Positions 8,912 to 13,212 of a stretch of 32,000 bases of DNA are shown here, in pieces. Origin of the DNA: Pasteurella multocida (GTDB lineage Bacteria > Pseudomonadota > Gammaproteobacteria > Enterobacterales > Pasteurellaceae); assembly GCF_900187275.1 (NCBI RefSeq), contig NZ_LT906458.1, positions 60,001 to 92,000 of the forward strand. Reading direction: 5' to 3'. The notes under the pieces were generated by a model, which worked only from the letters and a program-made list of their open reading frames with translations, did not search any database and was not told the DNA's origin. Each line of letters begins with the position of its first letter. The first letter of the stretch is position 1. A program made the translations under genes and the position numbers.

Positions 8912-8960
8912 TTGTGAATGGGTTTGCCAAGCTATAATAACTCTTGTTATTCGACTTAAT

Positions 8961-9300
8961 AGCACTCGTGTTTTCATGAGTGCTTTTTTATATTGAATTA
9001 AGTGAAAATCTTCATGGTAGATGAGAGTTATCTTTGAAGATGCGTGGAGTTTAAAAATAATGATGTGTCTCACAGTTAAAATAATAAGGTCTTGTCATAT
9101 ATCAATATATAGATGAGAATTTATTTCTGATAGTTAAAGTACTTATCCTATCTTAATGGACTTTTAGAAGGAATCAGGGTACTTTCCTATAAAGATAGAT
9201 GTGTTGCTATTATGATGCGCGTTTACTAACTCATGACCCTTGAGTATTAGGGGATGTTTTTTTACTTAGTTATTAATTTAACTTTTACTAAGAATAGTTT
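8961..9300 (+). repeat. Copy A of the receptor-gene upstream module (hairpin + promoter/dyad + leader), truncated before the start codon
   Basis: By-eye alignment to 13289-13700. Examples: CTTGTCATATATCAATATATAGATGAGAATTTA (9091-9123) vs CTTGTCATTGATCGATATATAGACAATAATTTA (13458-13490); AGATGAG and TCTTT blocks at about 9019-9035; TTATTAA..ACTTTT near 9270-9290. The right boundary is approximate. Confidence 0.6.
8962..8989 (+). terminator. purL terminator hairpin (copy A of the repeated GCRCTCGTG hairpin)
   Basis: GCACTCGTG (8962-8970), loop TTTT, CATGAGTGC (8975-8983), then TTTTTT. The same hairpin recurs at 13289 and 16182. Confidence 0.8.
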
Positions 9301-9344
9301 GGTTGATAAGATTAGTTAAATTATTACTACGCTAAAAAGTATAT

Positions 9345-9917
9345 TTATGTATAGGCTTTTTTTATTTCATCACATAAAAAACAATAGTATTGTAGAGCGG
9401 ATTTATATAATTCAAACACTGAATCCATATCTCTATTGTATTCGGCAAACTTAACTCCTTTATGAGTTATTTGATTTCTTTCATTTCCTAATGTGATGAA
9501 ATCATTCTCACCTTTTTTGAGGTCATCCTCACGCTCTATTTTATTTCTAATTTCTTTTTTAAAATCTTCACCAAATAAACTATAAAAAGTATTGCAGTTT
9601 TTGTGGGTAGTTGATTGTTCCCATTTGAATAGGGTGTGATACTTTCTAGATAGTGCTTGTTTACTAAGAAAATTATGTAATATAGAATTATCTTTTTCTG
9701 AAAATACACTCGGTATAAATTTAGTCAAATGTCTTTCAAATGAGTTTGCTGATGAAATTAATAATATTCTTCTTGATATATCATTATATTCACTCAGAAG
9801 TGTGGTTAAATAGTAATTTTCATGTAATAGTTTGTTTAGCTCTTTAATATTCTCTTTATAATCATCATAAATTTTATTAATTGCGTTAAACTCTTCGCTA
9901 TCTAGAATTTTGAGCAT
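9345..9917 (-). CDS. Small all-alpha HEPN-like protein (190 aa) with an Rx4H motif; putative RNase effector
   Basis: LGNERNQITHKG contains R147-x4-H152 (nt 9462-9479) near the C-terminal helices, as in HEPN families (RNxxxH). The gene starts 13 nt downstream of the DUF262 gene, with GAGGTAAT in the spacer, and is very AT-rich. Confidence 0.6.
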   Translation of the reverse strand: MLKILDSEEFNAINKIYDDYKENIKELNKLLHENYYLTTLLSEYNDISRRILLISSANSFERHLTKFIPSVFSEKDNSILHNFLSKQALSRKYHTLFKWEQSTTHKNCNTFYSLFGEDFKKEIRNKIEREDDLKKGENDFITLGNERNQITHKGVKFAEYNRDMDSVFELYKSALQYYCFLCDEIKKAYT

Positions 9918-9930
9918 AAAATATTACCTC

Positions 9931-11169
9931 TTAATTTTTAAAGTTATATTTATTGTAAGCAATCTTCAGTCTTTTGATAACATTTGTCTTGGAACTTGTT
10001 TTTCCTGTGGAAGCATCTTTGAAATTTTGGTCTTCTTTTAATTCTTCAATAAATCTTCTATTTATTTGAATTAGATTAATATTCTTTTCGTCCCAAGCTT
10101 TTCTACAACAACCAAAAAACACGGATTCCAAAAATGTAATGCTGAGTTTAGGGTTTTCTGTGGAAAAACTTATTAGTGGACCAGTGATTTCAGAACATTT
10201 ACATTCAATCATGAATTTATCCCAGATTTCTTTCAGTAAGGAAATTTCTTCATCTTTTAAGTTTTTAGCTGAGTTAGCTATATTATTTAGAAACCCTATC
10301 ATTGAGTTTTGATATTCTATTTTTTCATTTTTATTCTTATCTAGAGCGCTATTATATCCTGCTAGTAGCATTCCAAATAGTCTTAAAATTAACTCTATAT
10401 CTTTTAATCTCAAATCCTCTTGGGATTTTGATAGTAGATTTTCTCTCCAGATAGTATTCTTATTCATTTCAATTAATTCTTTTAAAAACTTTGAATGGTA
10501 TAGTGACATTCTTATTTCTTGATTATTTAAATTAACCCCGCCACTATTTAATCTATTGAAAATTTCGAACATAGATTGTACGTTATCCTCACTATCAGTA
10601 GATGGTTTTATAATCATATTTCTGATTGTGGCCAAGTCTAATGTTGTTTTATCTTCAAATTCTAAAGTTTCATAATTTTTATCATGAAATCTATTTTTCT
10701 GAGGATTGTTTTTAGAGTCTAGTTTTAAAGAAAAATTGCTAAATAATTTATTGTTAGATAATAAACTCTTGCTTATAAATTCTCCCGTTTTGGCGCTTTC
10801 TCTTATTTTTAATCTAGCATCAGTTTTAGGAAATTTCCCTTTTACGAAAAAATATAAAGACATAAGTCTTTGTTGGCCATCTATAACAAAAAATTCATTT
10901 CTAGATTTTTCATATAAAAACATCTGTGGAATTGGTAGACCTATAAGAAGTGATTCAATTAACTTTGATGCTTTATTTATATCCCATACATAATTTCTCT
11001 GAAAATCAGGTATCTTAAATACACCAGCATCTAAAAATGATATAATCGTGGATATATTGAAGTCGTTTGGAGTTGTAGTTAATTTAAAAGTCTCAGATGG
11101 GTATAAACTAATTTCATCATCGCAATCATCACTTACTAGGTTTATTTCTTGAATATCTGTATTAGCCAT
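9931..11169 (-). CDS. DUF262 (ParB-like / GmrSD N-terminal type NTPase) domain protein, 412 aa, with an unassigned C-terminal half
   Basis: DUF262 hallmarks are IPDFQRNYVW (aa 53-62, nt 10984-11013), IDGQQR (aa 96-101; DGQQR = nt 10867-10881) and FEIFNRLNSGGVNLNNQE (aa 201-218). I recognise no DUF1524/HNH-type His motif in the C-terminal ~180 aa. Confidence 0.8.
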   Translation of the reverse strand: MANTDIQEINLVSDDCDDEISLYPSETFKLTTTPNDFNISTIISFLDAGVFKIPDFQRNYVWDINKASKLIESLLIGLPIPQMFLYEKSRNEFFVIDGQQRLMSLYFFVKGKFPKTDARLKIRESAKTGEFISKSLLSNNKLFSNFSLKLDSKNNPQKNRFHDKNYETLEFEDKTTLDLATIRNMIIKPSTDSEDNVQSMFEIFNRLNSGGVNLNNQEIRMSLYHSKFLKELIEMNKNTIWRENLLSKSQEDLRLKDIELILRLFGMLLAGYNSALDKNKNEKIEYQNSMIGFLNNIANSAKNLKDEEISLLKEIWDKFMIECKCSEITGPLISFSTENPKLSITFLESVFFGCCRKAWDEKNINLIQINRRFIEELKEDQNFKDASTGKTSSKTNVIKRLKIAYNKYNFKN

Positions 11170-11289
11170 AAATGTCTCTTAATTGTAGTTATTAAAATTA
11201 AATAGAATCTTATCACATTAAAGCAATTTGTTTATTGGTAAAGTCAAATAATGTGAGTTTGATCAAAATATTATCTCTTGTGATGCCTC

Positions 11290-11872
11290 CCTACTATGTT
11301 GTCCCTACGAATGCTTTTTCATATCTTACTCAGTTAAATCCCCTTCTCAGACAGTCTTGTTTTTAAAAAATCTATCACACTTTTATCATTAAAAAGAGTA
11401 GATATTTAGTGATAATTTACGCAATAAAAAAGTTTTGTTATTTATCGATATAGACAATAATTCACTGCTAACTTCAATGTACATTGAGATGTAATATAGT
11501 CAGTTTTGGTGAGATACAGTTTAGTTAAGATGGGAGGAGGCAGAGCTCCACAGTGTGAGCGTGTATGCTGGGGAGGAGCTCATCCATGGCATTCAGAAAA
11601 TTAGTGTGAAGATTAAGCTTGGATATGCATTTATATAACTACAAGCGTTTATTAACTTTTGAAGTTATATGCTTATTTATGAATAAATTTCGTATTTATC
11701 ACTTTGTGTTATTTTGGGACTTTATAGCCAAATACCCATTACACAAAATAATTTAACTAATACAAGCAATCATATTGAACTTGACACGATACATGTTGAT
11801 GCACTTGCTAAGAACAGACAGGGTACTCCTTCTATGATGCTAGTTTTTTCACAATTATCTTTTCATCTCTAG
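11290..11872 (+). repeat. Copy B of the receptor-gene upstream module (degenerate hairpin 3' arm + promoter/dyad + leader + first ~55 codons)
   Basis: Aligned blocks against copy C: CTACGAATGCTTTTTCAT (11305-) vs CTCATGAGTGCTTTTTCAT (13300-); GTGATAATTTACGCA vs ATGATAATTTACGCA; TATCGATATAGACAATAATT vs GATCGATATATAGACAATAATT. The coding part aligns without gaps apart from a 1-nt deletion. Confidence 0.75.
11679..11872 (+). pseudogene. Frameshifted, truncated 5' fragment of a ZnuD-like TonB-dependent receptor paralogue
   Basis: ATG 11679 followed by AATAAATTTCG has one A fewer than ATGAGAAAAATTTCG at 13713. The frame homologous to the receptor (..LCVILGLYSQIPITQNNLTNTSNHIELDTIHVDAL..) therefore lacks a start, and the ATG frame stops after 25 codons. 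Homology fades by about 11850. Confidence 0.75.
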
Positions 11873-11970
11873 TCTAGTTAATGTACTCGTCAAAAATGAG
11901 TCTTCTTCTCTGAATACTCTTCACAAACCACAACATTAGTCCCCTATATCAATAAAGTATTCCAGACATA

Positions 11971-12060
11971 ACCGTTTTTTTAATCAATACTACCGTATAA
12001 TAAACAAGCTATTTTCACTGTAATTAGGATTATTTTTATGAGAAAACGTCAGTACTTCAA
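11971..12060 (+). repeat. Possible fourth short fragment (B') of the leader 3' end and start codon
   Basis: CCGTTTTTTTAATCAATAC vs GCGTATTTTTAGTAATAC (13659-), and TTTTTATGAGAAAAC..GTACTT vs TTTTTATGAGAAAAA..GTACTT (13708-). The middle part is not alignable. Confidence 0.4.
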
Positions 12061-12161
12061 ATCGCTAGGCGTTGTTCTTTGGAGGAATTCTTGTGATCCC
12101 ATGACTGATTATGTTGATGTACATTTGTAAGGAAAGTATGCTAGAAATTTCTGTAAATTTG

Positions 12162-12170
12162 ACCGCACTT
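12162..12170 (-). repeat. Uptake signal sequence core (ACCGCACTT)
   Basis: Perfect 9-mer with an AT-rich flank, 17 nt upstream of the orphan ORF's start. Confidence 0.8.
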
Positions 12171-12186
12171 TTTGACGGAGAACAAA

Positions 12187-13212
12187 ATGACGTTAATTGA
12201 AAAGCTAAAAAAGATTGAAGACTATGTTTTACAACATTGCCAATATCGTTTTTATTTCGCCAAATCACTATTTGGTATGGCGTTAAGGGCACAATATTAT
12301 TATTACCCTGAAGATATTTCAGAAGCGACGAAAAATTTGGCTAATCATTTTTTAACGCAAGCAGGCTATGAAGATTTTTATACGCCGCTTGAAGCGCTGA
12401 TGAGCAAAGCGAATATCACGCCACCTAGTCCTGCGGAGATGATTGAGGGAGGAAATTGGCGATTTTTTGCGATTAAATTCAATTTTTTTTCTCCGCTAAA
12501 TCCAGCATTGAAAAAATACTATAATACAGAATATGTCACTTTTATTTGCATACCTTGCCAAGATCATGAAGGTCAGGATAGTATGGAATTGCTTTATACC
12601 TCACCGACAACGGGCAATCTGTTTAAAGAAATGGGCAATAGCCAATTACTTGATCCAAACTGTGAAGTTGATCAAGCTTATCTTCAATTACTTGAAGAAG
12701 CTGTCGATTTTATGTGCGAAAAATTAGATATTGATGCACCAGAACCAACTGACATTACAGAAGCGTTGCATGACTTCACTACTTTATTAAATATTCATGA
12801 TAAAGAGGAATTTATAAAACGTTATCAACAAATTCAAGAGGCGCCTGAAAAATGCTTACTGGATTTAGTAGAACAAGGCTATGCAGAGGAAGACGATAAA
12901 CCTGAATTGGCATTTTTGAGTTATCGTTTTTTATTGCAACCAATGTTAGATTCATTTGATACGGATTGGGGCATTGATAATGAAGAATTAAGCGAATATT
13001 TATCAAACATCATTGGCAAGAAATTCAAATTGCCCCAAAAAGCCCTCGAACCTTATGAAATTGTCGAACGCTTAGAGAAAAAGAGCGACTATACTTTGTT
13101 AAATATTGAAACAGAACAAGATTCATACAGTTTATTTGTCTGTAAACAAAAAGATAAAAAACGTATTTTACAGCTAGCAAGAATGTTAGATTTTGCTATT
13201 GTTCCTTTTTAA
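12187..13212 (+). CDS. Hypothetical acidic cytoplasmic protein (341 aa from ATG 12187), no family recognised
   Basis: A long ORF with GGAG 6 nt upstream of ATG 12187, which I prefer to the track's TTG 12172. It has no TM segment or signal peptide and is rich in D/E. USS cores lie at 12162 and 13274, and a terminator hairpin at 13289. Confidence 0.65.

Follow-up and report, generated by a model that had tools for sequence, protein, structure and literature searches.

The two adjacent genes at positions 9345-11169 on the minus strand of the 32,000-nucleotide stretch of Pasteurella multocida DNA analysed here (the window), termed A and B, are read with moderate confidence as a chromosomal system of the PD-T4-2 type directed against phages, in which A would sense phage DNA and control B, a putative HEPN RNase. 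Judged by profile models, the pair appears to be a divergent member of the PD-T4-2 kind equipped with a Menshen-like sensor. The domain reading of the pair made earlier from the letters of the DNA, without database searches (the sequence-only reading), was essentially right, but the architecture itself is not uncharacterised, as it has already been named and given a phenotype. The branch represented by the P. multocida pair is broad and intact, and is probably overlooked by the present PADLOC models. The pair marks a probable phage-defence locus, seemingly present across P. multocida, which could matter for phage therapy or phage typing of this veterinary pathogen, and the invariant residues in both proteins constitute clear targets for mutagenesis.

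Gene A (9931-11169, minus strand), identified from the open reading frame (ORF) call and profile matches, encodes an NTPase sensor of the DUF262/ParB type, 412 aa long and lacking a DUF1524 nuclease, and gene B (9345-9917, minus strand) encodes a 190 aa, all-alpha protein which, on the basis of the ORF call, the profiles of its homologs and an AlphaFold2 (AF2) model, is assigned as a putative RNase effector of the HEPN RiboL-PSP family. On the minus strand, the TAA stop codon of A is followed by the 13-nt spacer gaggtaatatttt (9918-9930, read from the sequence), which contains a GAGGT Shine-Dalgarno ribosome-binding site for B, and then by the ATG start codon of B. The earlier claim that the genes form one operon is thus upheld, as the two minus-strand ORFs, the 13-nt gap and the ribosome-binding site are exactly as it had described them, and the DUF262 and RNxxxH motifs which it quoted were all recovered at their given positions. 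In A, IPDFQRNYVW begins at residue 53 (FQR at 56-58), DGQQR at residue 97 (97-101) and FNRLNSGG at residue 204 (204-211). In B, LGNERNQITH begins at residue 143 and contains R147 and H152, the codons of the RNxxxH motif (R147-N148-Q-I-T-H152) being located at 9462-9479 on the minus strand. The protein in NCBI that is 100% identical to A is named ‘DUF262 domain-containing protein [Pasteurella multocida]’.

Protein A matches the Pfam family GmrSD_N (PF03235, DUF262) with an E-value of 7.3e-35 over residues 41-224 (10498-11049, minus strand), and no DUF1524/HNH domain was matched in Pfam at E up to 1, in agreement with the initial description of a DUF262 module devoid of its nuclease half. In GmrSD and SspE, DUF262 functions as an NTPase sensor (PMC12065111). 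The motifs FQR, DGQQR and FNRLNSGG (NxxNSGG) are invariant in 20 homologs with 49-100% identity, found in Pasteurellaceae, Neisseria, Vibrio, Acinetobacter, Enterobacterales and others. Among the PADLOC models, A matches NsnA of the Menshen system at 1.7e-52 (model positions 38-376 of 385) and PD-T4-2_A at 3.6e-36 (model positions 56-361 of 363), with both alignments reaching residues 405-408 of A; NsnA also outscores PD-T4-2_A in all 20 A relatives tested. The AF2 model of A has an overall predicted local distance difference test (pLDDT) score of 73.6, and its residues 230-410 are helical with a pLDDT of ~90. When this structure was searched against the PDB, BrxU (7p9k) was the sole significant match (E 1.4e-4), followed by weak matches to ParB CTPases, and a profile of the A family searched against PDB sequences retrieved BrxU alone (2.4e-5). 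The helical C-terminal domain of A (residues ~225-410; 9940-10497, minus strand), which the sequence-only reading had left unassigned, would correspond to ParBDB, a ParB-associated domain with a proposed DNA-binding function that is common to NsnA, DndB, GmrSD and SspE (PMC12065111, the 2025 Menshen study). As this correspondence is drawn from the full-length match to NsnA, the domain is regarded as ParBDB-like and putatively DNA-binding.

Protein B by itself matches nothing in Pfam, NCBIfam or PADLOC, and its putative assignment to HEPN comes only through its relatives. The closest of these, 50-63% identical to B over the full length, match Pfam PF18735 (HEPN_RiboL-PSP), a family matched by 37 of 39 members of the B family (best 3.2e-21). 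The PADLOC model PD-T4-2_B is matched weakly by 12 of the 39 (best 1.8e-5), and single members cross-match CARF_HEPN, Cas13-ApeA, HEPN_Swt1, HEPN_Apea and HEPN_MAE_28990. The sole columns that are invariant in the 39 sequences, at a mean column identity of 28%, are E61, G116, R147, N148 and H152, a set which in the alignment reads as the RNxxxH signature plus an acidic residue. The conserved motif lies near the C-terminus and has the Rx4-6H spacing by which HEPN proteins are recognised, and the AF2 model of B is composed entirely of helices (pLDDT 89.7, predicted template modelling score 0.86). No solved structure of any B relative was found; the best PDB match of the E. coli B homolog is Csm6 (6tug), a weak one (E 0.055), in which elRNKlaHn of E. 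coli is aligned with LRNKVAHN of Csm6, the segment containing the catalytic R372 and H377 (DARNA preprint). The HEPN claim is therefore sustained with regard to the conserved RNxxxH motif and to PF18735 in the relatives, but not with regard to the 190-aa protein itself, which has no HEPN profile match. An exhaustive profile search for the B type yielded 705 clusters at 50% identity with E ≤ 0.001, and 461 with E ≤ 1e-10. Among the B proteins, those of the Clostridia type (~223-236 aa; e.g. L035:2755-3426) carry an insertion of ~45 residues before the RNxxxH helix (alignment columns ~165-205) and lack the motif RQYHTLFxW, which is kept in proteobacterial and Bacteroidota members (residues 91-99 of B in the window); the insertion and the motif loss would mark two structural subtypes of the effector.

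Genes A and B are one co-inherited unit. A search with the A profile returned 57 genomic loci, 43 of which have an identifiable A ORF and downstream sequence, and in 41 of these 43 a B homolog is the next downstream ORF, mostly separated from A by gaps of -8 to +12 nt; the two exceptions are a frameshifted and a partial A. In the reverse direction, all three look-ups anchored on B found a GmrSD_N gene of 388-391 aa located 1-5 nt upstream. The co-occurrence of the two genes across genomes, proposed at the outset as a check, is thereby confirmed from both sides. The hosts of the paired genes include Gamma-, Beta- and Alphaproteobacteria, Bacteroidota, Clostridia, Chloroflexota, Actinomycetota and Verrucomicrobiota. 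Across 39 pairs, the pairwise distances in A correlate strongly with those in B (Mantel r = 0.92, a value reached in none of 2000 permutations), with B diverging faster than A (mean identity 30% vs 46%). In each of 35 loci the G+C content of the cassette lies below that of the flanking DNA, with a mean difference of 0.11. Outside P. multocida the pair is often found in mobile or defence-rich settings, in line with the location in defence islands that had likewise been proposed as a check. It is present in Akkermansia and Klebsiella phage genomes, and in gut Clostridia and others its neighbours include serine recombinases, integrases, Schlafen-like helicases, a ScoMcrA-like protein and a methyltransferase with a helicase. 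The E. coli copy is surrounded by AlpA, capsid, head-decoration, SSB and D5-primase genes and adjoins lambdoid tail genes. On one side of this copy (L059-L064, 7056-12006) a truncated capsid gene (254 aa, Phage_cap_E) is found next to the lambdoid tail genes, and on the other side are AlpA, a head-decoration gene, a full capsid gene (346 aa), SSB and a D5-type primase; judging by its gene content, the region resembles a satellite with capsid genes or a mosaic of phage and satellite, with the pair as cargo.

An operon of this composition was listed in the 2013 HEPN survey of Anantharaman et al. as ‘Ribo L-PSP-HEPN ... operon with ParB’ (PMC3710099), which agrees with the mention, in the sequence-only reading, of a survey with DUF262-linked HEPN families. 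PD-T4-2 was found in E. coli ECOR65 by T4 selection (Vassallo et al. 2022, PMC9519451) and is described as ‘DUF262, HEPN’, with HHpred placing PD-T4-2B in PF18735 at 97.8% (PMC9519451, Table S3). The cloned system protects E. coli from T4, and its deletion in the native strain sharply raises T4 plaquing (PMC9519451). Reviews place PD-T4-2 among the DUF262 systems without DUF1524, which are largely uncharacterised. The statement that no experimentally characterised DUF262 and HEPN system was known does not hold, as PD-T4-2 has a name and a T4-defence phenotype (PMC9519451), although its kinship to the pair is remote in sequence. A match to a named, characterised system was among the outcomes that the sequence-only reading had itself listed as speaking against it, and the PD-T4-2 architecture is such a match.

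The comparison with PD-T4-2 was made through the PADLOC models and the published description. In both systems two co-oriented genes are adjacent, the first encoding a DUF262 protein without DUF1524 and the second a small HEPN protein; A fits the PD-T4-2_A model (3.6e-36, as given above), relatives of B fit PD-T4-2_B, and the B family would be PF18735 by way of the relatives 50-63% identical to B. The differences are that A exceeds the 363-position PD-T4-2_A model by ~50 aa in length and obtains a better score on NsnA, that B (190 aa, compared to a 168-position model) gives no PD-T4-2_B match at E up to 10, and that the host of the pair belongs to another family (Pasteurellaceae). With respect to Menshen (NsnABC), A has the architecture of NsnA, ParB-DUF262 followed by ParBDB, and NsnA is its best model match, but neither the NsnB ABC-ATPase nor the NsnC inPIN-nuclease is adjacent and the HEPN gene directly follows the sensor gene. 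An identity with Menshen was ruled out, as the islet contains no genes other than A and B, is flanked by purL and the DUF7821 gene, and lacks NsnB and NsnC. GmrSD, BrxU and SspE share with A the N-terminal DUF262 domain with the QR, DGQQR and NxxG motifs, but in each of them one polypeptide also carries a DUF1524 His-Me DNA nuclease at its C-terminus, in place of which the pair has a separate putative RNase; a GmrSD-type enzyme was ruled out as A has no DUF1524 and an all-helical C-terminus. The HEPN defence RNases Csm6, DARNA/PD-T7-3, ApeA and AbiF/AbiD resemble B in the RNxxxH motif, and CARF_HEPN, ApeA and Swt1 cross-match weakly in its relatives, but these proteins carry a fused CARF or C-terminal sensing domain, whereas in the pair a RiboL-PSP HEPN protein stands beside a separate DUF262 sensor. 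DARNA (2026 preprint) offers an example of a HEPN tRNase switched on by a DNA signal, but was rejected as the present system since it is PD-T7-3, a single HEPN protein without a DUF262 partner. Two systems of Vibrio cholerae, considered because an A homolog exists in this species, were likewise rejected: WonAB consists of an ABC-ATPase and a PD-(D/E)xK nuclease, and GrwAB contains DUF1524.

The pairs of a Klebsiella Peduoviridae phage, an Akkermansia phage, E. coli and a Rhizobium metagenome-assembled genome were considered as archetypes of PD-T4-2 and rejected; as in the pair of the window, their A proteins score higher on NsnA than on PD-T4-2_A, and their B proteins give a weak PD-T4-2_B match or none. 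Every A-type protein tested (the 20 relatives and the four pairs) favours NsnA (PDLC03877) over PD-T4-2_A (PDLC04027), and none has an adjacent NsnB or NsnC. An assignment by best PADLOC match would probably mislabel the whole branch and leave the pair uncalled, because A is drawn to NsnA and B is not recognised.

In the proposed mechanism, A would be the sensor and switch, its DUF262 NTPase and ParBDB-like domains recognising phage DNA, be it by a modified base or another phage-specific state, and this recognition would be coupled to NTP binding or hydrolysis, as for DUF262 in GmrSD, BrxU and SspE. Lacking a fused DUF1524 nuclease, A would act by physical interaction on the separately encoded and probably translationally coupled B, which is expected to dimerise and thereby form the RNxxxH active site. 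Once released or activated, B would cut cellular RNA (tRNA or mRNA), and the cleavage would stop translation and lead to abortive infection or growth arrest. The frame for this scheme is set by the domain identities, the conserved catalytic motifs in A and B, the tight operon and the co-inheritance across phyla, all of which were observed; the defence phenotype is borrowed by analogy from PD-T4-2 and the sensor behaviour of DUF262 from other systems, and the contact between A and B, the nature of the trigger, the RNase activity and targets of B and the abortive outcome are proposed. A more specific version, offered tentatively and considered rather doubtful, concerns the whole widespread branch, in which an NsnA-like sensor is joined directly to a RiboL-PSP HEPN protein without an ATPase transducer: the branch may be a system with a mechanism of its own, where an NTP-dependent DNA clamp of the ParB type would itself gate the RNase. 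If true, such direct gating would link the sensing of DNA to the cleavage of RNA in a minimal relay, distinct from both Menshen and the GmrSD enzymes.

By its composition, the islet in which the pair resides is foreign DNA. This low-G+C islet (8912-12171, 28.7% G+C) extends from the purL stop to the start of the DUF7821 gene, and consists of the cassette and, upstream of A, a non-coding stretch of ~1 kb. The G+C content of the cassette is 27.1% (0.271), compared to ~41% in the rest of the window, which corroborates the AT-richness first estimated by hand counts; 1004 stretches of the same size taken from outside the islet do not fall below 0.364 and average 0.411 (standard deviation 0.022), which places the cassette ~6 standard deviations under this mean. 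The G+C content at third codon positions (GC3) of the cassette genes is 0.20-0.21, versus 0.38 in purL. The Hin-type uptake signal sequence (USS) core AAGTGCGGT is present in 11 copies in the window and in none in the cassette. The absence of the USS from the cassette, pointed out earlier, is therefore real, but it is not significant, as the probability of finding none in 1.8 kb by chance at a density of 1 per 2.9 kb is ~0.53.

The annotation of the context covered window ORFs of at least 100 aa. One side of the cassette is occupied by a biotin carboxylase (accC) fragment, an SSF symporter, PrmA, DusB, Fis and PurL, and the other by a DUF7821/DUF6630 protein, a TonB-dependent receptor and an iron ABC transporter. 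Farther along are a protein of the exo/endo-phosphatase family, a phosphoglucomutase-type enzyme, an SbmA-like ABC protein and a permease, as well as an OmpP1/FadL-type outer-membrane protein, Ogt, MutH and TerC. These annotated ORFs are related to housekeeping or transport, and none of them encodes an integrase, a transposase, a recombinase or another defence protein; the earlier claim that the cassette sits between duplicated recombination modules thus finds no support. The cassette occupies the same site in 24 of 24 P. multocida contigs with an identical flanking DUF7821 protein, these being the longest-contig blocks of the 899 that encode this protein, a sample in which empty sites were possibly missed. 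An empty site, sought in order to define the insertion borders, was found in none of the 24 contigs, and no convincing direct repeats flank the cassette. In four other aligned P. multocida records the islet is 99.5-99.97% identical to that of the window. The cassette therefore looks fixed in P. multocida and not like strain-variable cargo, and the pair may be a species-wide component here instead of a mobile one. The view that its surroundings are typical of horizontally acquired defence cargo does not hold, given the lack of recombination modules and the shared site in all 24 contigs. In the complete P. multocida genome CP040918.1 (L066, 3353-4983) gene A is broken into parts of 95 and 326 aa, and B is shortened to 126 aa. 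The islet of this genome differs from that of the window by 7 indels and 0 mismatches, and because there are only indels and no substitutions, this suggests that the broken genes are the result of homopolymer assembly error in AT-rich DNA and not real pseudogenes.

Several of these observations weigh against the reading of the pair as a PD-T4-2-type defence system. B of the window matches neither PF18735 nor PD-T4-2_B and A fits the NsnA model of Menshen better than PD-T4-2_A, and for these reasons the kinship to the tested E. coli PD-T4-2, as estimated by model comparison, appears remote. Neither a mechanism for PD-T4-2 nor the biochemistry of any RiboL-PSP HEPN was found in the literature searched. 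The P. multocida locus has no mobile-element or defence neighbours, and presence in all 24 contigs is unusual for accessory defence cargo. The tight operon, with its overlapping or abutting genes, would also suit a toxin-antitoxin or addiction module, in which B would be a constitutive HEPN RNase toxin and A its neutraliser, loss of the pair would kill the cell, and any effect on phage would be secondary. HEPN toxins are known from toxin-antitoxin systems, of which the DARNA preprint cites HepT/MNT, the pair is frequent on mobile elements, and a cassette that occupies a single chromosomal site in all P. multocida contigs read would fit as well. Nevertheless, this explanation is judged unlikely, as a 412-aa two-domain protein of NTPase/DNA-binding type with invariant motifs exceeds the needs of an antitoxin, PD-T4-2 emerged from a phage selection and its native deletion raised T4 plaquing, and no MNT-type nucleotidyltransferase partner is present.

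It is quite improbable that the pair instead is a restriction-like system directed against DNA, with the DUF262 domain of A acting as a nuclease or nickase on phage DNA and B as a non-catalytic or RNA-binding accessory. DNA cleavage in GmrSD, BrxU and SspE is ascribed to DUF1524 and not to DUF262, and the invariant R, N, H and E which B keeps despite a mean column identity of 28% argue for a catalytic role, even though the 2013 HEPN survey treated ParB-fold domains as DNases (PMC3710099), T4, against which PD-T4-2 acts, has modified DNA, and relatives of DUF262 sense such DNA. The constancy of the cassette in P. multocida (24 of 24 contigs, the same site and 99.5-99.97% identity where aligned), together with neighbours that are all housekeeping and without traces of mobile elements, could in turn indicate that the pair now serves this species in a domesticated role unrelated to defence, for example RNA turnover or regulation tied to the status of DNA. 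This is regarded as very unlikely, since the G+C content is still strongly foreign (27% vs 41%, with a GC3 of 0.20), the same pair resides in phages, satellites and defence-rich islands of other hosts, and the sampling of 24 blocks out of 899 may have passed over empty sites.

The ~1-kb AT-rich stretch between the start of A and the DUF7821 gene (11170-12171) contains no ORF of at least 60 aa, and searches of it revealed no Rfam family, no plasmid or phage similarity and no likeness to related loci. It may represent a long leader, a promoter region or a decayed gene, which are candidate roles. Shuffled sequence contains promoter-like matches at least as often as the region does, and no promoter was assigned. 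Within this stretch a patch at 11501-11600 has a G+C content of 49%, and its folding is not unusual. At the right edge of the islet a USS is located at 12162-12170, directly upstream of the start of the DUF7821 gene, the product of which (12187-13212) combines DUF7821 and DUF6630. At the opposite edge, outside the system, an intrinsic terminator-like hairpin of purL is found in the flank at 8961-8984 on the plus strand. A second terminator-like hairpin with a T-run lies on the plus strand at 9237-9253, opposite to the strand of the cassette, ~250 nt downstream of the purL terminator and ~90 nt from the stop of B; this hairpin could end an unannotated short plus-strand transcript or be a remnant of inserted DNA.

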